A stretch of DNA of 64,000 nt, from assembly GCA_010015585.1 (NCBI GenBank), contig ML975149.1; one strand, given 5' to 3'. Positions within the stretch are counted from its first letter, which is position 1, and the number at the start of each line of letters is the position of its first letter. Under the pieces are notes generated by a model. That model did no database searches and was not told the DNA's origin. It worked only from the letters and a program-made list of their open reading frames with translations. The stretch is from Eremomyces bilateralis CBS 781.70 (taxonomy: Eukaryota). Positions 34,774 to 60,765 of this stretch are shown here, in pieces. The translations under genes and the position numbers were made by a program.

Positions 34774-36196
34774 ACACGATGCATCAAACCGTGGCGAGGA
34801 TCACAGGCAGCATTGGTCTTCGCAAGCTAGCTTCAATCCGGAGGATCTGTGACCTCAGCACCGCTCTAGGGAATGGGCAGGTTCATTCAGGGCGGGCGAA
34901 ACTTGCAATTCATGCCGCTGTGGGAGTCTAGTAGGAGAGGAGTGGGATCCCCCCGCGCGTCGTCGCTGAGATGATACTGGTGGACGGCGGGAAAAGGCGT
35001 GTCTCCTGGACAAAGGAGTTTGTGTCTCCTGGACAGCGGAGCTAATATCTCTGGATTTAAGATGAAGCTAGATATTCGAAACCAAACCCTCGAGTCTTGC
35101 ATTGGAACGACACCCATCACTGGCTTCAGAGCACTCCCAAAGTTCGTTGACAACACCTTTTCAAAACTGCCTTTGTTGGCACCACCCGCCTTTGCAAATT
35201 ACCTTTCGACAGACAGCATCACCCATCGGTGCATTTGGATGAGGTTGAAATGAGGTTTGACAGGGATTGGCCTTGGCTCAGGGGTTGTCCCCATGTTTTC
35301 CTTGCAGCCTCAGGCGCCAACACTTGAACATCACCAGCAATCCCCAGCCTTCCTGGAGCACTACGCTCTACACGATCAATTACTGGAGCTAGATATGAGA
35401 ATATGAATGATTAGGCCATTGAAAATCTCGGTCACTCCAGCGGAAAATTGAAAAATAAGCATTAGTGCGTCGATTCCGGTGAGTGACAGGGCCACATATT
35501 TGTACGAATCGGATCGACGGGCTTGTTGTGCTGCGCTGACCGCCTTCGAGACCGGCAGACCGAACATTCTCCTAACATTACCCCGACTACAGCCTGAGTG
35601 CTCCCTGATAGGGTAGCTATGTCCAGCTTATGCCTAGAATTCATGCATGAGAACAAGAACACCAACTTTGTGGAATGTGGCCTTACTCCCGGATTTATCA
35701 TGATCGCGAATTCATCGCGATTCTTGCCTTGTTTGGATGCCTGTGACTGTTTGAGGCCTGGGTAGATGTCTGGCACTAGTGAGCATTGCCGCTCAATATC
35801 ATTGAGAGAATCGGCATTAAGCGATTCCCCGTCTCATCCGCAAAGCTGCAAACAGACCAGGCATTCTAGATCACCTTTTGGCCCCCATTTAACCGGCTTA
35901 CAGCTGACAGCTGCAATACCTTCCATGTTACTCCGTACAGAGCTTCGATACCTATCATTCGTCCGCCCTCACACCATGATATCTACGATGTTTCATTTGG
36001 CAATTCCAGCAAACAAGGATGGGAAGGTCCTTCGAACAACTCGGACCAGGGAGCAGACTAGTGGGGAACATCTCGAATTCCCCATACATATGGCAAATCC
36101 ACATCTGCAGGATCCAATTTATTTAAATGGTCAGCATGTCCCCTTCTGCAGGTCGCATTTTTCGCCACCTTTTCACCTGGTTCATCTGAGTCCACA

Positions 36197-37906
36197 ATGG
36201 TGAAAGTACAGCCTTTGCTGGTTTGGTGCGCCCTAGCGATCGGTTCTTCTGCCGAGATCCAATCGGTATCGACCCCTCCAGAGGCTGTGGAATCCGAAGC
36301 TCAGAAGGTGCTACAACAGGATGGAGCCGCGCCTTGTGCTCATGCTGTACGTTCATGGAACTCCATATCATGCTTCGATTATTGCTAACATCAAATTAAG
36401 TGTTCAAGCTTGACCCTTGACCTTCCTCAAAAGGTCTTTTTGGGCCATGACGGAGGCTTTGCTATGTGGGATGCGAAGCAACATGAACTCGTACCCGCAT
36501 GTCGGGTCGTACCAACCTCGGCCGAAGACATCGTCGCAATCATCGAGGCTGCGAAGAGCAATCAATGTCACTTTGCCATCAAGAGTGGTGGGCACAGCCG
36601 CATGGCCGGTGCAAGTAATGCGGAGGGTGGCATCACTATTGATTTAGAAAAGCTGACCAGCATCGAGCTTGCTAAAGATCAGAAGAGCGTGACCATTGGC
36701 GCGGGAGCTCGATGGGGTGAGATATATACGACTCTTGAAAAAGAATCGCTCACTGTCATCGGAGGACGGGTGGCAGATGTTGGAATTGGCGGCCTGGTTC
36801 TTGGAGGTGAGAAATTGTCAAATCATCACCTGAATGGTTTCTAATCAGCTTCAGGTGGGATATCGTTCTTCTCCGGCGTCCATGGCCTGGCTTGCGACAA
36901 TGTCATCTCTTATGAGATCGTGCTTCCGACAGGCAAGATTGTCAAAGTTAGCGAAAACGAAAATTCCGACCTGTTTTGGGCGCTTCGAGGCGGCGGATCG
37001 TCAAACTTCGGCGTTGTGACATCTTTTGTCCTAGAGACCAAGGAGCTACTAAATCCGAATGGCTTATGGTACTCAAACCGCATGCACACTCCTGACAAGC
37101 TACCCGACCTCACCGCCGCTCGTCATCAGTGGATGGAAGGCCTTGGGGAGGATCAAAGGGTTGGAGGCTACGACGTGTACGCCTACAGTGGCATGCACGG
37201 CATGAGCCTCATGGCTTCGCAGCACATTCATCTTGATCACGCTGATCCGACAACGTCTCCGCCGCTATTCAACGCCTATGATCCGATCGAAGCTTTGCAA
37301 GAGGTTGATATCACGCGAGTGATGCCAATGTCCAACATCACAAAGGAGGTTTCCGACATGAGCCCTTACAACATGCGCTACTCGTACTCCACTTTCACGC
37401 GGAAGCCAGACATGGCGCTCGACGAAAAGATCATGGGTTATTTGGACGAGGTGGCCGAGGAAATCAAGCATATCCCTGGGGTCGTGGCCACGTTTATCAT
37501 GCAGGCGCTTTCCAAGGATGCTCTATCGCACACAAAAAGGCGCGGAGGCAACAGTTTGGGGCTTCGGGAATCAGATGGCCCGCTTGCAATCAACAGCATT
37601 TCTTGGATGTGGGCCAGCGCCGAATTCGACGAGCTCATGCAATCACAGGTGCAGTCATTCGTCAGGAAGAGCGAGCAAGCGGCCAAAGACGCCGGCCTCT
37701 GGCATCCTTTCAAGTACATCAACTACGCCGAGAAGTGGCAAGAGGCCGATGTCCTAGCAGGGTTTGGCGAGACGAATCTCAAGAAGCTGCGGGGGATTCA
37801 GAGGAAGTACGACCCGGAGGGTGTGTTTACGAAAGGTGGACTCTGTGGAGGCTATTTCATGTTCAATGAGAAATTGGGCAGGCAGGAAGTCAGGGATGAG
37901 TTGTAG
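36197..37906 (+). CDS. FAD-linked oxidoreductase (FAD_binding_4, berberine-bridge/VAO-like) with signal peptide (exons 36197-36346, 36401-36806, 36855-37906)
   Basis: [67 protein letters not shown]; ends in RDEL. Confidence 0.92.
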
Positions 37907-38595
37907 ATGTGATATATGGCGAGCAATTACGGTTCATCAATGGGGCCTCTTGAGTAGAGGTGGATGGATGGATGGATTGGTTAGCATTATGACTGGAAAC
38001 CTTAGAGATCAGGGGACGCAATTTGGATATGAGAAAATGACGGAGCCAATTGGGCATTGATGAAAGTACTGGAAAGATCTTATGGTTGGACTGACGGTGT
38101 CGATCAATTTCATGGACATAGCTGTTTGTGGGCATTGATGCTCCCTGCTCAAAACGCAGTCTAATACAAGCCCCGGTCCTCTTTCACACAATGTGCAGCT
38201 TCTCGACAGAAGAATCATAGCTCCTCCGTCCCCCTTAGTCCTGCATCAGACGCCCTCTTCCAGTCCAGCCCTTCCGACTGCGCTGTCTTTTGATCCTTCG
38301 AATTCGCTGCTCTAATGACATCGTCTTGTGGCTTGGATAGTGCAGACCGTCCATCAATATATAATGCGAGGCAACTATATTCGAAGCTACGAAGGCAGAG
38401 ATCCAGAGTCTCCTTCATCACACAGGTTCCGATTGGGTATCTTCTCCACTGGTGAGGCCAACCAAACGATTTCTGCTAGCGGATCGAGTTCTGGAAGGAC
38501 GGGATCCTAGTGGATATCGCTCTTGACCATTAAGAACCACTTAGTCGTTCGGGTAGTAGCACGGGTCCATGTCTAGTCGATGCATACCGGTCGAC

Positions 38596-39352
38596 CTAAT
38601 ATCTCTTCGCAGGCAACTCTGCCGCATATGGAGAATTATACGTGGTTATAGGAAGTTCGGCCGTCTGTGCATGAAATCTAGGCTGCGCCTTCTTTTGCAT
38701 ATCCGTGCCAGCAGGGATCGTTGGTTGCATCTTCTTTGCTCGTCGTGCACTGAGACGTCCAAAGACGAACGCAGAGAGGACGATAGTGGCGAGGAATATT
38801 ACCCCAAGGCCCACACCTACTCCGATACCGACTTTCTGTTCCGTTGTGAGGCCGCCTTTCGTTTGGGCTAGCTGGTTGGCTCCAGTGGTAGCGGTAGACA
38901 GGCTCATAGAATTTTCGTCAATACCGGTTCGGGTAGTGTGGTGTGTACTGGTTGAGACTGCGGAGGTGGTCAGGTTAGTGCCTGGTTAAATTTGCAGTGC
39001 GGTTCGAGCTGACGAAGTTGCAGTAGAGTAGGGACAGGAGGAAGGGCCGGGGTTATATTTTCTCACTTCTTGTTAATCTGGATGGGATAATTGGTATCCC
39101 ACTCCCTACGAGGTTCGTTGGCACATTTGTCGGCAATCCGGAAAGCAGCTCGGAGATGAGTCCGGCTCCAAGGTCGGTTGGGGCAGGATTCGACAGCGTT
39201 CCTGTACTCAATATACCTCCAACAAGGGCGAGCACGGAGGACTCGAGGCTTGATATATCCGCCTCTATGGCCCTAGGATGCCATTAGCCAAAGCTGGATT
39301 TCATATTGATCGTTAGGCCATACCCAAGAGTCGGTGTTGCAGCCAGGGCCAT
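38596..39352 (-). CDS. Small single-pass membrane protein with S/T-rich stalk (Mid2-like TM motif), 3 probable exons
   Basis: LTTEQKVGIGVGVGLGVIFLATIVLSAFVF followed by basic residues and AELP repeats. Introns near 39273-39323 and 38960-39066 keep the frame. Confidence 0.55.
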
Positions 39353-40403
39353 ACTGACAATGTATATTTGCTCCGCTCTGAAGTGACGAAGGGGCAAAAG
39401 CACACTTTGCCAAGCTGGGATTGTGGGACAGTTATAAGTACATACATAGCTCGTGGCTTCACGAAATATCGTCCGAATCCGGAGTCTGGATTCAATGTGG
39501 CGTTCATCACGATGCAGCACTATGCATGAAAATATTGACGCCACATGGCATCTATTGGTCGTCCTGATACGTAAGGCTGTGGATTTTGCTCAGATCTGTC
39601 AATCGTCACACGCTGTTCACAATTATTGGCCTAGACTGCTTTAAAACGCCAAAATAGGGTCTTGAGTCAGCGAACAAGTACATAGACGTAGCTGAGAGAT
39701 GTTGGAACAGATGCTGTTGGGCTCATGTGCAGTTCTTGATCATTCGGCATCGCAGCACCAATGGCTTGCGCCCAAGGGTGCCATTTCGTAGGGGAGACCC
39801 GTACGGAATAATCCCCGTGCATAGTAGACTTGAACCAGCAGTACGGAACGAAAGACTTTGAGGAAGCACAGGACGTTGGGGGACCCATTAGCCAGTGCTT
39901 AAAAAAACCGTTACTTCACTGATCATATTCAGTGGTGAAGTAGGCCTCACAAGTCAGTACTTGATGACAATAGAATGGGTGGATCAGAAGCCAGGTGGCT
40001 GGAGGGTTAGGATCACCTCGTTCTACGACGACCACGGTCAGATGTAGTCATCGAATCTGACCTGGAGCCTCGTTGAAGCGACTCGGCGTTGTCGCCAACT
40101 GACGTCCACGACAGGCATACTAATGCCCTAGTGATGCTCCCCCATCGAAATTGAGGCCAAAATCCGCCTTATTATGTAGTAAAGTTAATGCCGAAAAGAA
40201 AATTGATGAGCAAAATGCGAACAAGGGCGCAATGCTTACTGATGTGGGCGTGGCCGCGTGGACACCACTAGACACGATGGGAAAAAGATGAAGCTCCCAA
40301 GGAGCCCCTTGTCCCATGGTTCATAGGATCAGATCGGCTCAGGGTAATCGGAGAAGGGGCTTGGAGCGATCCACAGAAGGAAAAGAAGATATATGCCTTC
40401 GAT

Positions 40404-40417
40404 AAAAAACGCAAAAA
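40404..40417 (-). terminator. RNA polymerase III terminator (T5 and T6 runs)
   Basis: TTTTTGCGTTTTTT begins 6 nt downstream of the tRNA discriminator on the minus strand. Confidence 0.75.
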
Positions 40418-40422
40418 TATAA

Positions 40423-40558
40423 TGCCTCAACACGGAGTTGAACCGTGGACCTCCGCATGTCTAGTCGTACTAGTGCTGTTATGATTGTTAGAGGGTGATT
40501 TGATTGGCTAATGAGTTGTGTGACATACCGACGCTCTAGCCAACTGAGCTATTAAGGC
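40423..40558 (-). tRNA. tRNA-Thr(AGT) with two introns (53 nt at 29/30: 40476-40528; 9 nt at 37/38: 40459-40467)
   Basis: Removing both introns gives a 74-nt cloverleaf GCCTTAA TA GCTC AGTTGGCTA GAGC G TCGCA CTAGTAA TGCGG AGGTC CACGG TTCAACT CCGTG TTGAGGC A with all four stems paired. Anticodon at 40471-40469. Confidence 0.9.
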
Positions 40559-41337
40559 TGCTAGTTGATATGAGGGAATTCAACTTCTGAATATTTAATC
40601 CTATTTTAAAACTCAATTCTAGCGTCGTACATGATCAGGACTCACGGCATTATTTTCAGGTTCTATCCACCCTCCCAGTTCATATCCGGTACGGTAATGG
40701 TGCCTTCAATTCTTCCTTCTTAGTCTTGTGTGCTTGGCAGTGTATGGAGCATGTTAAGCTGGCTGTTGACCCGCAATTTCATTGGTCAATTCCATAATAT
40801 CCGTCCTTGACTAGAACCTTCACTAGAGCTATAGCCGTTCAATACCAACAGCTACCTATTCGCACGCTATGTTAATTATGCCGATATTAAGAGGCACGTT
40901 ACAGTATTGTCTTTCTGGAAGTCCGATATGTTGTCGTTTCCGTTGATTGTTGAATTCCCTTTCATCCGCAAATCGATCACCAGAACTCGATGGCGACTTC
41001 TGGGCATCCTATCGTATTCCTTTCCTTTTGACTCGCACGATACGAACTCCGGGAGTCGTTTCATGATTAACCGGTCCTATTCAGGAGCACCAGTGCTCTC
41101 GAATCTCAATGTTAGGTCCTATTTCGGAGCTTTCAGCTCCTGCAAGTGGAGTTCGATGCCGTAGATGCGGAGAACCTTGCCTAGGTACCTTAAGTTCTAA
41201 ATGATTGACATAAATTGACAGATAAAGAGGGGTGAGGCCAGCCGAAATCTCAAATCATAACGTCCCAAGTCCAGCAAGTTTCGCATTTCCAAGTCACCAT
41301 TTCCTTCATATCCACAAGTTTTGAGAGTAGCATATCA

Positions 41338-42174
41338 ATGTCTTCTTCCGCTGCACCTCTCACCCCCGGCGTCGCCTTCATCACCGGCGGCGCTCGCGGC
41401 CTCGGCCACGCCACCGCCCTCGCCTTCGCCCAACACGGCGCCCGCGCCATCGTCCTCGCCGACATCCACGACGACGCCACTATGACCGCCGCCGCACAAG
41501 CCGTCACCTCCCTCGGCGCGGCCTGCCTCCCCCTCCGCTGCGACGTCAGCCAAGAAAGCGAGGTGGCGGCCGCGATCGCCACGACGGTCGCAACGTATGG
41601 ACGCATCGACTACGCGGCGAACTTCGCGGCGATAATGGGGCCTGTCGATGGGATTGGAGGGTTGAAGTTGGAGCATTGGGAGCGGGTCATGCGGGTGAAT
41701 TCGACGGGGCTGATGCTGTGCGTGAAGCATGAGTTGGCGCAACTGATGAAGCAGGTGGAGGCGGAACAAGTGGAGGGGAAGGTGCCCGGGCGGCAGGTGG
41801 GGAGTATTGTGAATTGCGGGTCGATTAATTCAATTCTTGGGGGGGCGAGGGCGGGGACGTATACGGTGGCGAAGCATGCGGTGTTAGGGATCACGAGGGT
41901 CGCGGCGGGAGAGGGGCGGAAACATGGGATCCGGGTCAATGCGATTGGGCCCGGGGTGGTGCATACGCAGTTCAGTGAGACGGCGATCATTGGGGGGGAG
42001 CAAGTAGCGGGACCGACGAACCAGGGATTAACTAAGTTGCTCGAGAAGCAGGGGAGGGAGATTTTACCGGAGGAGATTGGGGAAGCGACGGTGCTTTTGT
42101 CGAGCAGTGCAATGAGTGCGGTGAATGGGCATTTGTTGCCGTTGGATGCGGGCTTGACATCGCAAGCGGCTTGA
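41338..42174 (+). CDS. Classical short-chain dehydrogenase/reductase
   Basis: TGGARGLG, GRIDYAANFA, catalytic YTVAK, GIRVNAIGPG. Confidence 0.93.
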   Translation: MSSSAAPLTPGVAFITGGARGLGHATALAFAQHGARAIVLADIHDDATMTAAAQAVTSLGAACLPLRCDVSQESEVAAAIATTVATYGRIDYAANFAAIMGPVDGIGGLKLEHWERVMRVNSTGLMLCVKHELAQLMKQVEAEQVEGKVPGRQVGSIVNCGSINSILGGARAGTYTVAKHAVLGITRVAAGEGRKHGIRVNAIGPGVVHTQFSETAIIGGEQVAGPTNQGLTKLLEKQGREILPEEIGEATVLLSSSAMSAVNGHLLPLDAGLTSQAA

Positions 42175-42476
42175 GGGGTATGGATTGCAATACCCGTTAT
42201 ATATCCAAGTTTCCTCGTAGCCCATCGAGTCTATCAAACAATGTACATCTGGAACGGCGAGTCGTTTCGTGCATCCCTTCATTCAATCCCATGGAATAGT
42301 GCGAAAGCTCCATATCAATGCGCCTCTAACACCGTAAAGGAGAGGATAGAAACGGATATCATGAAAGCATACTGTGCTAGACAAGAAGAACCCTCTGATC
42401 AAGATTGTCGATGCCCTGAAGAGAGAAAGACAGAAGAAGCGCTCCAATACTCGAGTAGGTCGACTGTGAAGGAGAC

Positions 42477-45400
42477 TTATAGGATACTCATCATCCCTTT
42501 AAATCCGGCTGACTTGGCACTCGCACTGGTTGTTTTGTCCTTGTCCTTGTCCTTGTCCTTACCCTTCTTGCCCACATTTTGCGCACCGCCTAGTTGCAAG
42601 TCAGAGTCGATCCTAATGGCGCTAGAAAGCGAATCACTCACCTCTGCCGTATATCCTCGCCTTACTGCCCGTCGTCACCTTCGGCTTCTCCCCTCCATCG
42701 CCTCCACTCTTCTTACTCCCACCGCTCTCAACGCTGATCGCGCTATTGCCGCTCGCCAAAACTCCCGACTCGTTCTCCCGACCCATCCCACCTCTCTCCC
42801 GTATCGGCGAACCCATCCCGCCTGAAAACATAAATGCTCCTTCTCCAGGATACATCGGGATATGCGATCGATCGGGACTGGCCATACTTCCTCGGTACTC
42901 CGAACCAGGCCGAACCCTTTCTTTTCCAAGGCCCTCCAACCTGCTCGACCGAATTGAATCCACGCCATCATTGCCCAACCGGGTTCTCCCCTCCTCGTAC
43001 GCCGCATCGGGCGTGTTGAACGCATGATGCCTGCTCCCCCTTGGCGCAGCCGGCGCATATGTGCGGTTCGGCATCGCACGTGTCGATGAGGTGCTATACG
43101 CCGTACCCACGCCGCTTACCACCCGGCTCACCCCCTGGCCACCCCCATGCATAGGCGGCAGCGCGGCCGTCATGTTTGCCATGACCGGTGAATAATGCCC
43201 AGGGCTCACCGACGGCTCCTCCGCGTCGCCAAAATGGAACTCCGCGAACGCGGGGCTCTTCCCGAGACCGACGGGAGAATACCCAGCCTCAAGCTCTTGG
43301 TTCCGCAGTTCCAGATCCACGCACCGGTCGTGCAGCTTCCGGTACGCTTTCTGCAACTGCGCCATGTTCGCCTGCTTCGCCGCCAGCGCGCTTTCCACGA
43401 TCTGTTGCACCGCGCCTTGCCCCGCGCCGTGCGCGTTGACGTGCAGGCTCGCGTTCTGCGTTTCGGCGAGCCGCATTTCGAGGTCCGCGACAGCCCGTTC
43501 GGCGGCGTTGCGGATCTGCTCGATTTCGCGGTCGCGGGCGAGGGCGCGGCGGGCGGCGGATTCGAGCTCGCCGCGGAGGAAGTCACGCTCGGAGCGCATG
43601 CGCTCGAAGTCGAGCTCACGGTCTTCATAGGAGGAGACGCGCTCGCGGAGCTTCTCGAGCTCTTGCTCGAGAGTGTGGAGTTGGTCGACTTCGGATTGCA
43701 GGGCGCGGACAGACTCGTTGGCGAGCGTGCTGCGCGCCTCGGATTCTTCGAGGCGGTTCCGGAGATGGTCGCACTCGCCCTGGGCTTGTTGGCAAGTGAC
43801 GCGGAGGTCCTCAAGGGCGGCGGCATCGCGGCGGTCTTCGTCGCGTTTGGCACGCACGAGGCGGACTTTGCCTTCAACTTCTTTATCCCAGGCACGGGAT
43901 CCTTCGCGACGGAGGGCGACTTCTTTGCGGAGTTGCTCGTAGCGCTCTTCTTGGCGTTTGAGGCGGGATTGCAGCGTGCGGTTGGTCGATAATAACTTCT
44001 GGGTATCGGCAGCGGCGGATTCTTGAGTTAGGTCGCGGCGTTTGGCGGCACCGAGGAACGTGGCGGTTTCGGATTTGAGGTATTGTTGAAAGTGAAGCTC
44101 GTTCCGGAGGCGAAGGTTTTCGAGTTGTAGAGAGGCGATGGGGTCGGTGGATGAGGGCGGAATTTGGGTGCTGCAGGAGAAGAGTGGTGGAGGAAGGGGT
44201 TCGGTTGCGGATGCGGGTTCGCCGGGTGTGGTGGTACCGGAGCGTGGAGCACGGCGGCCGCGTTTCCGCATGGTTTCGGCGCTCGGTTTCTTCTGGATAG
44301 GAACGCTGCCGTGGGGTGGAATAGTTGGTGAATCAAGGAGAGGATGTCGTGGACGCATTTCTGTCGAAGGAGAGGCATTCTCTGAGTTGCGATGGGAATC
44401 GGGTAGAGAGGATCCGCTGGCCGAATGAGACAGTTTTCGATCCGGTGGAGCGGTTAGGGTGGTGCTGCGGGTGTTCCGGCGAGATTCGGTCCATGAGTCG
44501 CCCGCGAATGTGGTTGAATCATCATCGTACGGCGGCTCTTGAAAGTCTGCTGGTCGAGGAGCGTTCCTGGGTAGTTCAGGTAAAGGGGATGCAGGAGGCG
44601 GTTTCAGATGGTGTAGAATCGGCCCGGAGTTGTATAGGTCTAGGCACTGAGTCACCAGCTCCGCTGGGTCAGATTTGATAAACCGAGTGTCTGACAATTC
44701 ATCTTCAGGGACGGATGAATAGAACGCCTTGTGCAGAATATGGGACCGACGGTAGGTTTCCGTTCTCGACGCAACAATGCTTTGGCGGAAGTCGATCTCC
44801 TGCGCGCCAGGGAAGTTGATATTCTTGAAGTAACGACGAGGTTTGCGGAGGTAGGACGTGAAGTTTAGCGGGAAAAGTCCATATAGGAAGGTGAAGAAGT
44901 AATCCACCTTGGGGATGATTGTCTCGTCGTTGTCATATGCCAGCGTTAATTTCTCCCATGATGGATCAGCCACGAATTCGAATTGCTCATGGATAGGCGA
45001 CTCATGCATGCCTAAATCATGGTCATCCTGACTTCGGCTCCGTATTTGTTCGGGATTGAGGTCCCAGCAGACGATTCTGTTGAAGATAAGGAAGAGACGT
45101 GGGAGGTAGGAAACGAGAGAGCTCGTGATGTGAGGGATGAACATGATGAGCACAGTTAGTGCTAGGTCGACGATCGTACCCGATGTGTCAACCAGCAAAC
45201 ATGTGAGTAGGTGATCGACGAGGGACGTCTCAAGGACCAGATACAGATGGGGAGGTTGGACATGTACGAAGGCACTGAGCAGACCAAGTGCTTGCGCACG
45301 ATGCTCGTTCTTGATGAACAAGTCGTCAACGGCTAGGAGTAGTTCCTGCAAACTTGTTAGTATCGAGTCCGGTAGACTCCAAGGGACGACAAACCTTCGG

Positions 45401-59466: not shown

Positions 59467-60765
59467 AGTAGCCCCCCTGCGCATTGGTGAGATCATGTTA
59501 ACACTTCTCTTATAGAGCTTGATAATATCGTTTATCGTTAGGCACATCGGCCGGATCAACTTCTGTGAAAAACCTGGGAAAGGAAACTAAGACTAGTTGT
59601 TATGATTGTTATCAGTGCATGCATCAAGGATTGATGCTACTGTAGTTAAGGCTTCAGGTTAGTGCCCGAGACACCCACAGTCATCTGTGCTTCCCTACGA
59701 CCTGCGTAATAACATAGCCTATAACATCAATCTTCCTTCATTTTCAAACAGTTCTTGCGAAACCATAACAAATCCGGTGTCTGATCATAGACGAAAAATC
59801 TATAATCCGCCTTCGTCAGCTTTCTTATATTAATCATCATTGCCGCGAGATCTTTCCTGATCTAGAGATGCCTTTTGGTGGTCTTAGTATCCTCCTCTGT
59901 GACGATTTTCTTTCAGCTTCTGCCAGTCCTCGTAGTTGCGCTTTACAACCAAAAGAATCTTAAGTTGGATAAGATGCAGGGGCAAAATACACACTACGGA
60001 TTCAATCTAACCCTCAAGCTTGACGAAGCCCTTCGGTAGCAGGGTAACGATGTCGAGTCTATTCGGTTCGTCAGGCTCTTGATCACGGCCGGATAAGCTC
60101 TGCAACACGTGGTGATTGGACACTCCTTAGTACACGAACCCAGGCTACTCTTCCGCATGAGGAGGTAGAATCATTCCGGGGCGCCCTTCGTATCTTTGGT
60201 AATAAGGCACTAGTCGCTAGGTTCAATTGCCTTCGTTTACGCGATCTCGGTTCTCCTGTTAACGTCTGTCAGGCAAATTATGGAGGAAAGAAGGCAGAGA
60301 ATGTTCCTTCTGGTGAAGCAGGAGACCTCCATCGTAAGATTCCTAATATCATCAACTTCAGATCTTCCAATCTCAACAGTATACGAGGACAGTGCTCCAG
60401 GTGGTCACTTTGTGGCAGTAGAGATACAAAAAAGCCAATCTCAGTCTCTGAGAAGCTTTTCGGGGTCTGAAGAGTTTGGAAGATGCTGTGGTAGGAATAG
60501 CATTAACACAGCCGTTATCAGGTTTGTTCGCAAGGATTGAGCCCCTATTAGATAATGGTCACAATCATTCATGTTGTATCCCCATGGCCTCAGCTGGTAG
60601 CTATGCTCCAGAAATTAGAACGGTCAACCTATTATGAAGACGTAGACAGGCCGTAGACCCTTTAAGTTAATTAGTTAACGTCAGCAAGACCCAGTTGGTT
60701 AGTTGTTCACCTTCCTTCTCCTCATCATTCCCTACGGTTTTCGTTGTTGAGAAATAGATTTCATT

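Follow-up and report, generated by a model that had tools for sequence, protein, structure and literature searches.

We analyzed a 64-kilobase (kb) window, comprising all 64,000 nucleotides (nt) of a stretch of the Eremomyces bilateralis CBS 781.70 genome (GenBank assembly GCA_010015585.1, contig ML975149.1). The study concerns a transfer RNA (tRNA) gene, tRNA-Thr(AGT), on its minus strand. The Rfam model RF00005 matched a single tRNA at 40558..40423, where the earlier note on this DNA had read one, scoring 41.5 bits (gathering score, 29). The alignment ran end to end, covering model positions 1-71, and left a block of 73 nt in the anticodon arm unaligned. No second or split tRNA was found in the window by Rfam at E-values up to 1.

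The gene comprises three exons of 30, 8, and 36 nt. Exon 1 (40529..40558; tRNA positions 1-29), delimited using Rfam, ARAGORN, and a match to the A box, contains the 5′ strand of the acceptor stem, the D arm, and the first 3 nt of the anticodon stem. A 53-nt intron of spliceosomal type (40476..40528; indices 31-83 of the pre-tRNA), defined by its sequence and by a joint in the RNA contigs described below, separates positions 29 and 30. This is followed by an 8-nt micro-exon (40468..40475; positions 30-37) that carries the anticodon AGT at 40471..40469, and then by a 9-nt canonical tRNA intron at 37/38 (40459..40467). The micro-exon was identified by an enumeration of deletions and by ARAGORN, as was the 9-nt intron, for which the pairing of its cut sites (4/4 central pairs) provided a further line of evidence. 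Exon 3 (40423..40458; positions 38-73) contains the 3′ strand of the anticodon stem, the variable loop, the T arm, the 3′ strand of the acceptor stem, and a discriminator A. All of these elements are on the minus strand.

The promoter elements of the gene are intact: the A box, TAGCTCAGTTGG, is at 40551..40540 and the B box, GGTTCAACTCC, is at 40444..40434. The two boxes are separated by 95 nt instead of 33 nt, the two inserts together adding 62 nt. Two oligo-T runs of the minus strand, the expected terminators of RNA polymerase III (Pol III), lie 6-19 nt beyond the 3′ end of the tRNA (T5 at 40417..40413 and T6 at 40409..40404). No T run of at least 4 occurs within the tRNA gene, insert included. 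The motif search and the cloverleaf described below thus bear out the earlier description of intact boxes, stems, and terminator.

In default mode, ARAGORN detected 0 tRNA genes in the window. We enumerated all single and paired deletions within the 79 nt from position 26 to the variable loop, using as the target an anticodon stem of 5 base pairs (bp) and a 7-nt loop with T33 and a purine at 37. A 5-bp stem was not obtained with any single deletion at 37/38. Among all deletions tested, the pair of 53 and 9 nt was alone in giving the canonical form and matching the RNA. Removal of both introns produces the stem TCGCA/TGCGG and the loop CTAGTAA, which specify tRNA-Thr(AGT). Indeed, when the 53 nt were excised in a script, ARAGORN reported Thr(agt) with a 9-nt intron at its position 38-39; when both introns were excised, it reported an intron-free Thr(agt), default mode included. 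The resulting mature cloverleaf has stems of 7, 4, 5, and 5 bp, all undamaged, and a 7-nt loop with T33 and A37. The invariant tRNA nucleotides, inspected by eye, are intact.

These results amend the earlier note, which had described a single interruption and overlooked the second intron, the 9 nt at 40467..40459. Excision of the 53 nt restores the stem, as claimed, but leaves a loop of 16 nt rather than 7; the CTAGTAA loop arises only once the 9-nt intron at 37/38 is also removed. Two other assignments were considered and rejected. ARAGORN in its intron mode proposed a tRNA-Ser(aga) with a 61-nt intron, which has an odd loop position and a G.G mismatch, whereas the Thr assignment has a perfect stem and an RNA joint. 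A single 62-nt deletion with the intron at 40/41 gave a formally valid arm for tRNA-Asp(GTC), but a skip of 40517..40456 occurred in no RNA contig, and this deletion also lacks GT-AG ends and has only 2/4 central pairs.

The 53-nt insert contains the signals of a fungal messenger RNA (mRNA) intron. The donor, GTATGT, is at 40528..40523; the branch site, CTAAC, is at 40491..40487 and places the branch A 12 nt before the 3′ end; and the acceptor, CAG, is at 40478..40476. These motifs and coordinates had been correctly given in the earlier note, as had their likeness to mRNA introns of the window, which we evaluated against five RNA-verified introns within the same 7 kb. The latter are 48-109 nt long and have GTRNGN donors, AG acceptors, and CTRAY branch sites 10-12 nt from the end. 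The insert falls within their range in length, donor, branch distance, and acceptor, and it has all the features of the fungal pattern: a GTRNGT-type hexamer, a CTRAY branch site, a YAG acceptor, and a length in the host range. Its G+C content is 38% and its longest T run is 2. A G on either side of the insert leaves the splice register uncertain by 1 nt.

To place these signals against an empirical null, we scored 127,322 windows of 53 nt on both strands of the 64 kb. Using a loose definition of an intron, 10 windows passed; using a strict definition, 1 of the 127,322 passed, and this was the insert. That the insert is a genuine U2-type GT-AG spliceosomal intron is well supported.

The two introns also differ in the geometry of their cut sites. 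We evaluated the bulge-helix-bulge motif by counting the pairs of the 4-bp central helix at both cut sites. The 9-nt intron has 4/4 central pairs, forming a 4-bp helix with the anticodon loop between two 3-nt bulges, which is the geometry cut by the tRNA splicing endonuclease. Complementarity to the anticodon loop is also a feature of ordinary eukaryotic tRNA introns. No bulge-helix-bulge was found at the insert, which has 1/4 and 0/4 central pairs in its two registers, and none was present there in the minimum-energy fold of the unspliced precursor. The earlier note had named excision through such a motif as an outcome that would speak against the spliceosome. Thus, the insert, at 29/30, has neither the 37/38 position nor the motif of a tRNA-type intron, while the 9-nt intron of the same gene has both.

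The precursor fold had one further feature. Nine nt spanning the D loop and D stem are base-paired to the central part of the intron (within 40503-40544; pre-tRNA indices 15-23 and 48-56) through 7 Watson-Crick and 2 G-U pairs, an arrangement that would prevent the D arm from folding before the intron is excised. A 7-nt complement is expected by chance approximately once in five such comparisons, by our estimate.

Excision of the insert was evaluated in sequencing runs X1, X3, X4, and X5, whose contigs were aligned to 36000..43000. X1 is a DNA run that, like a second one (X2), may be the source of the DNA of the window. X3 contains 87% of the sampled words of 39900..41200, and its label as RNA is a guess. 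Nothing from X5 aligned to this region. In X3, a contig of 4,627 nt (record 3) joins 40475 to 40529, skipping exactly 40476..40528. The ends of the skipped segment read CT..AC on the plus strand and thus GT..AG on the strand of the tRNA. The shorter side of the joint holds 99 letters, and the joint has 1 ambiguous letter. Although the joint itself is marked 'between: not known', positions 1-99 of the record precede it and positions 100-1252 follow it; nothing can lie between the two sides, since the short side holds 99 letters and the next piece begins at record position 100. The 9-nt intron is retained in record 3, with no gap at 40459..40467. The spliced junction that the earlier note had proposed to look for in RNA was thereby detected at the predicted GT/AG.

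The same contigs skip mRNA introns of the region. Record 3 lacks 36347..36400 (GT..AG), a 48-nt intron at ~36805..36854, 38958..39066 (CT..AC), and a 51-nt intron at 39273..39323 (~39272..39323; CT..AC); record 5 lacks a 52-nt intron at ~42589..42641 (CT..AC). Overall, each of the six GT-AG or CT-AC segments tested in the 7 kb is skipped in X3 with the correct strand sign. None of these six joints is present in the DNA run X1, where the 53-nt insert is not skipped.

The binned depths of X3 provide a check on unspliced forms. For all introns, the depth of a bin equals the depth of record 3 multiplied by the non-intron share of that bin. For the bin 40446-40679, which covers the insert, (129 x 1117.9 + 34 x 225.1)/234 = 649, so that records 3 and 4 account for it fully. 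Since the sums match, no aligned X3 contig carries these introns unspliced, the tRNA insert included. Removal of the 53-nt intron in vivo, exactly at GT/AG, is well supported.

The extent of record 3 bears on the nature of the transcript. Upstream, the contig reaches 40627, 69 nt beyond the 5′ end of the tRNA, its 99 letters consisting of the 30 nt of exon 1 and these 69 nt (40559..40627, minus strand). This stretch includes an AT-rich segment at 40611..40590 (-32 to -53). A Pol III start would be expected downstream of this segment, and record 3 begins beyond it. Downstream, record 3 continues for >1.1 kb past the 3′ end of the tRNA and through both oligo-T runs. Over 39323..40475 the contig is unbroken (0 gaps, 0 other letters); the portion 39323..40422 on the minus strand, joined to the tRNA in the same contig, leads into a gene for a protein of 198 amino acids.

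Because the contig extends beyond both ends of the tRNA, it fits a long sense transcript, probably of RNA polymerase II (Pol II), rather than an ordinary Pol III pre-tRNA. Had antisense or unspliced transcripts overlapped the gene, insert-bearing contigs would have resulted; none aligned, which makes a sense Pol II transcript the simplest explanation. The spliced RNA is thus most simply a long sense-strand Pol II transcript that crosses the tRNA gene and undergoes efficient splicing, and on which the spliceosome would act as on any pre-mRNA. The earlier note had suggested that the spliceosome processes a Pol III pre-tRNA. The first part of that suggestion agrees with the removal of a spliceosomal-type intron at GT/AG; the second is not supported by a contig that passes both terminators.

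The transcript could arise in either of two ways. It could be divergent, starting from a promoter region shared with a dehydrogenase gene on the plus strand (ATG at ~41338). Alternatively, it could be an extended leader of the downstream gene for the 198-residue protein, located on the minus strand (ATG at 39352, stop at 38598) and interrupted by introns at 39273..39323 and 38958..39066. The exons of the latter are joined in the RNA, and the X3 contig links the gene to the tRNA region across 1.2 kb. The 198-residue product has a hydrophobic segment and Ser/Thr-rich stretches.

Several other features of the region were recorded. Record 4 ends at 40646, directly before a GTGAGT on the minus strand (40645..40640), and the next 18 nt are uncovered until 40627. 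The gap at 40628-40646 may reflect another 5′ splice site, an alternative first exon, or simply the start of the transcript. At the beginning of the dehydrogenase gene, 41387-41430 also matches a deeper X1 contig (depth 427 versus 162) with 5 differences and small insertions. The X3 contigs break at the same place, which suggests a repeated or paralogous segment. A neighboring frame of 959 residues encodes a protein of the hamartin/TSC1 type, whose nearest clusters are mostly from Ascomycota.

Based on these data, we propose that the locus is an intact nuclear tRNA-Thr(AGT) gene of an ascomycete with two introns of different kinds, the 53-nt one being spliced from a long Pol II transcript. We assign this reading a probability of about 70%. 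The most likely reason for the intron gain is the location of the tRNA gene inside a spliced Pol II transcription unit.

The following points weigh against this proposal. All of the RNA evidence comes from one run, X3, in the form of assembled contigs, in which k-mers from different molecules may be chained together and rare variants lost; accordingly, such data prove neither a single long molecule nor the absence of an unspliced form. Contigs also do not reveal the polymerase, a cap, a poly(A) tail, a lariat, or the strand of the flanking cover. The X3 sample (S2) differs from that of the genome (S1), and DNA without the insert in the X3 strain would produce the same joint. As a leader, the 1.2 kb before 39352 would be unusual for a fungal mRNA: it contains 21 upstream ATGs, which make a normal 5′ untranslated region unlikely. 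Finally, insert-bearing copies among multi-copy synonymous tRNA genes are usually taken for pseudogenes, according to the available excerpts of PMC4090602.

The consequences for the tRNA were considered separately. Removal of the 53 nt would leave a correctly foldable, intron-containing pre-tRNA within the long RNA, judging from the enzymology of tRNA maturation. RNase P, RNase Z, the tRNA splicing endonuclease, and tRNA ligase could then yield tRNA-Thr. Indeed, both RNase P and RNase Z are known to act on tRNA-shaped units in Pol II transcripts. The GUT15 RNA of Arabidopsis is described in the excerpts of PMC6152437 as one such transcript. A route from Pol II through the spliceosome and RNase P/Z to the endonuclease and ligase is mechanistically plausible by this analogy, and the chance that some mature tRNA arises from the locus is about even. 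Otherwise, a recent intron gain in an overlapping Pol II transcript would have made the locus a tRNA copy that Pol III can no longer express. The most demanding version, a working tRNA gene that needs both splicing systems in series, with the spliceosome acting on a Pol II- or Pol III-made precursor, RNase P/Z trimming it, and the endonuclease and ligase completing it, is one that we put forward tentatively and regard as doubtful.

Of the alternatives to the proposal, the one that best withstands the data is that the tRNA gene is dead: one of several Thr(AGT) copies, embedded in a non-coding Pol II transcript or leader, that recently gained an intron and yields no tRNA. We consider this a serious possibility, somewhat short of an even chance, and give the same weight to its corollary that the cloverleaf is intact merely because the insertion is young. 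Splicing out a gained intron always regenerates the sequence that preceded the gain, and a perfect tRNA after excision is therefore no proof of function. In keeping with a dead gene, the only RNA seen in the X3 contigs is the long one, and the presumption in PMC4090602 that insert-bearing copies are pseudogenes applies here as well. Against it, nothing in the gene has decayed: stems, invariant nucleotides, boxes, terminators, and the endonuclease geometry of the 9-nt intron are all undamaged, and the substrate range of RNase P and RNase Z, exemplified by GUT15, would allow the tRNA to be released.

Comparison with other sequences bears on the conservation of the locus. Run X4, from organism B, aligns at 80-95% identity over the flanking oxidoreductase and dehydrogenase genes, and in it the 3.6 kb at 37780..41355, which here hold the small gene and the tRNA, are replaced by 6,635 other letters. 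The locus is therefore not obviously conserved, in line with a dead gene; as X4 aligns only in the flanking genes, it carries no information on the tRNA itself. A metagenome scan with a pattern consisting of the end of exon 1, GTNNGT, a gap, and exon 2 returned 0 loci. A scan for any Thr(AGT) 3′ half with an intron of 0-20 nt likewise returned 0 loci.

Within the window, the insert has a sole echo, an exact match of 14 nt on the minus strand (59611..59598) to its branch-to-acceptor part. A 2-nt gap then separates the match from 6 nt identical to those after the insert in the tRNA. Together, the 14 nt and the next 6 nt outscore all 392 random pieces of the window, although the match is statistically borderline since it was chosen as the best of the whole window. 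It lies (context 59574-59640) just upstream of a pyrimidine-rich run ending in CAG. The match may belong to the 3′ portion of another intron on the minus strand, to which the tRNA intron might be related or from which it might derive.

The second alternative retains the spliceosome and replaces the polymerase: Pol III would transcribe the gene from its A and B boxes, the spliceosome would remove the 53 nt from a short pre-tRNA, and the tRNA endonuclease would remove the 9 nt. The intact boxes and oligo-T runs, together with an insert free of T runs of at least 4, are compatible with this scheme, and the U6 RNA of Schizosaccharomyces pombe, made by Pol III, is spliced by the spliceosome according to the excerpts of PMC5855946. 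The scheme predicts the same junction, and the flanks of the contig could derive from other overlapping molecules. Overlapping transcripts of this sort left no unspliced contig among those aligned from X3, however, and the junction contig is continuous with a leader of 69 nt and a trailer of >1.1 kb past two terminators. Recruitment of the spliceosome normally occurs through Pol II. The stretching of the box spacing by 62 nt, to 95 nt, is a further argument against Pol III, and we consider its involvement in making the spliced RNA unlikely.

A third possibility is that no splicing occurs and that the joint reflects DNA of the X3 strain lacking the 53 nt (a presence/absence polymorphism) or an artefact of assembly. 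The difference between samples S2 and S1, the identity of only 95-99% in 2 of the 11 aligned X3 pieces, and the 'between: not known' mark at the joint lend it some room. Still, all six segments with splice signals are skipped in X3 and none in the DNA run X1, the record positions leave no gap for extra letters, and the piece skipped is exactly the segment with consensus splice signals. On these grounds, the absence of splicing is very improbable.

The weakest alternative, that the tRNA splicing endonuclease cuts the insert as a non-canonical intron of the Cyanidioschyzon merolae or nucleomorph type and that GT, CTAAC, and AG are coincidental, is scarcely credible: some eukaryotes do splice non-canonical tRNA introns, some of them in the anticodon stem (excerpts of PMC4090602), and an RNA joint by itself does not name the enzyme, but the central pairing of the insert (1/4, 0/4) contrasts with that of the neighboring 9-nt intron (4/4), and a full set of spliceosomal signals is very unlikely by chance (1/127,322 under the strict definition). 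The RNA that lacks the insert, moreover, still contains the 9-nt intron, whereas an endonuclease cutting an odd site would be expected to cut the canonical site too. The retained 9-nt intron and the missing bulge-helix-bulge thus argue against the endonuclease and favor the spliceosome.

The finding, which concerns a single locus and RNA at the level of contigs from one run, bears on how introns are classified. In the excerpts of two recent accounts (PMC10275265, PMC12530127), the classes are kept apart: spliceosomal introns belong to Pol II transcripts and to a few genes for small nuclear RNA (snRNA), small nucleolar RNA (snoRNA), and ribosomal RNA (rRNA), and tRNA introns are spliced by proteins at 37/38. 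Specifically, the excerpted text of the 2023 tRNA review places tRNA introns between 37 and 38 and names the spliceosome only as a contrast (PMC10275265), and that of the 2025 paper regards spliceosomal introns as a class unrelated to tRNA introns (PMC12530127). A tRNA gene with introns of both kinds 8 nt apart, the spliceosomal one being removed in RNA, breaks this separation. It also offers a natural system for asking whether a tRNA can come from a spliced Pol II transcript and how Pol II and Pol III share a locus. If the two splicing systems did act in series, no tRNA known before this one would require the spliceosome, and the locus would be a naturally occurring example of a tRNA derived from a spliced Pol II transcript. 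As standard tRNA finders miss such genes, ARAGORN in default mode having returned none here, more cases may sit unnoticed in fungal genomes.

A full-text literature search, with most subscription journals outside its scope, found no report of a spliceosomal intron in any tRNA gene. The available excerpts of PMC5855946 describe spliceosomal introns in U6, U2, U5, and U1 snRNA genes and in rRNA genes: introns of the mRNA type occur in the U6 snRNA of S. pombe and many fungi, in U2, U5, and U1 of Rhodotorula hasegawae, and in the rRNA of some ascomycetes. Those of PMC5832005 add fungal U3 snoRNA genes. Among the structural-RNA introns given in these excerpts of PMC5855946 and PMC5832005, no tRNA host appears. 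Such introns resemble the insert in several respects: a short intron with canonical 5′, branch, and 3′ sites lies in a conserved, structured non-coding RNA, and its removal restores the fold. Like the insert, they are thought to be lineage-specific insertions. Unlike the snRNA, snoRNA, and rRNA cases, the host here is a tRNA with a protein-spliced tRNA intron 8 nt away, and the spliced RNA seen is a long transcript rather than a short precursor of near-mature size. A tRNA does not belong to the spliceosome, and closeness to the active site therefore does not account for the insertion here. An intron gained in a sequence with neither a reading frame nor a link to that active site bears on models of reverse splicing and insertion.

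A second set of comparators consists of the non-canonical tRNA introns of C. merolae, the nucleomorphs of cryptophytes and chlorarachniophytes, and the Archaea (excerpts of PMC4090602). As in our gene, these include sites in the anticodon stem, two introns per gene, and excision confirmed in RNA. They are described there as either 3-24 nt long (nucleomorph) or bearing a bulge-helix-bulge, and as cut by the tRNA endonuclease. The insert differs in that it lacks a bulge-helix-bulge, contains GT, CTAAC, and AG, and leaves while the canonical intron stays.

At the level of the transcript, the mascRNA of MALAT1 is a tRNA-like unit carried in a Pol II transcript. The Arabidopsis GUT15 long non-coding RNA (PMC6152437) and the dicistronic tRNA-mRNA transcripts of plants (10.1101/2020.04.13.039131) are, as far as the excerpts of these sources go, further tRNA-shaped units within longer spliced Pol II RNAs, and their release by RNase P and RNase Z is possible, as it is here. 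Among these units, as they are described in those excerpts, only the one reported here has its tRNA anticodon stem split by a spliceosomal intron. The insert is a spliceosomal intron of the class known from structural-RNA genes, now in a tRNA gene and beside an intron of the tRNA type.

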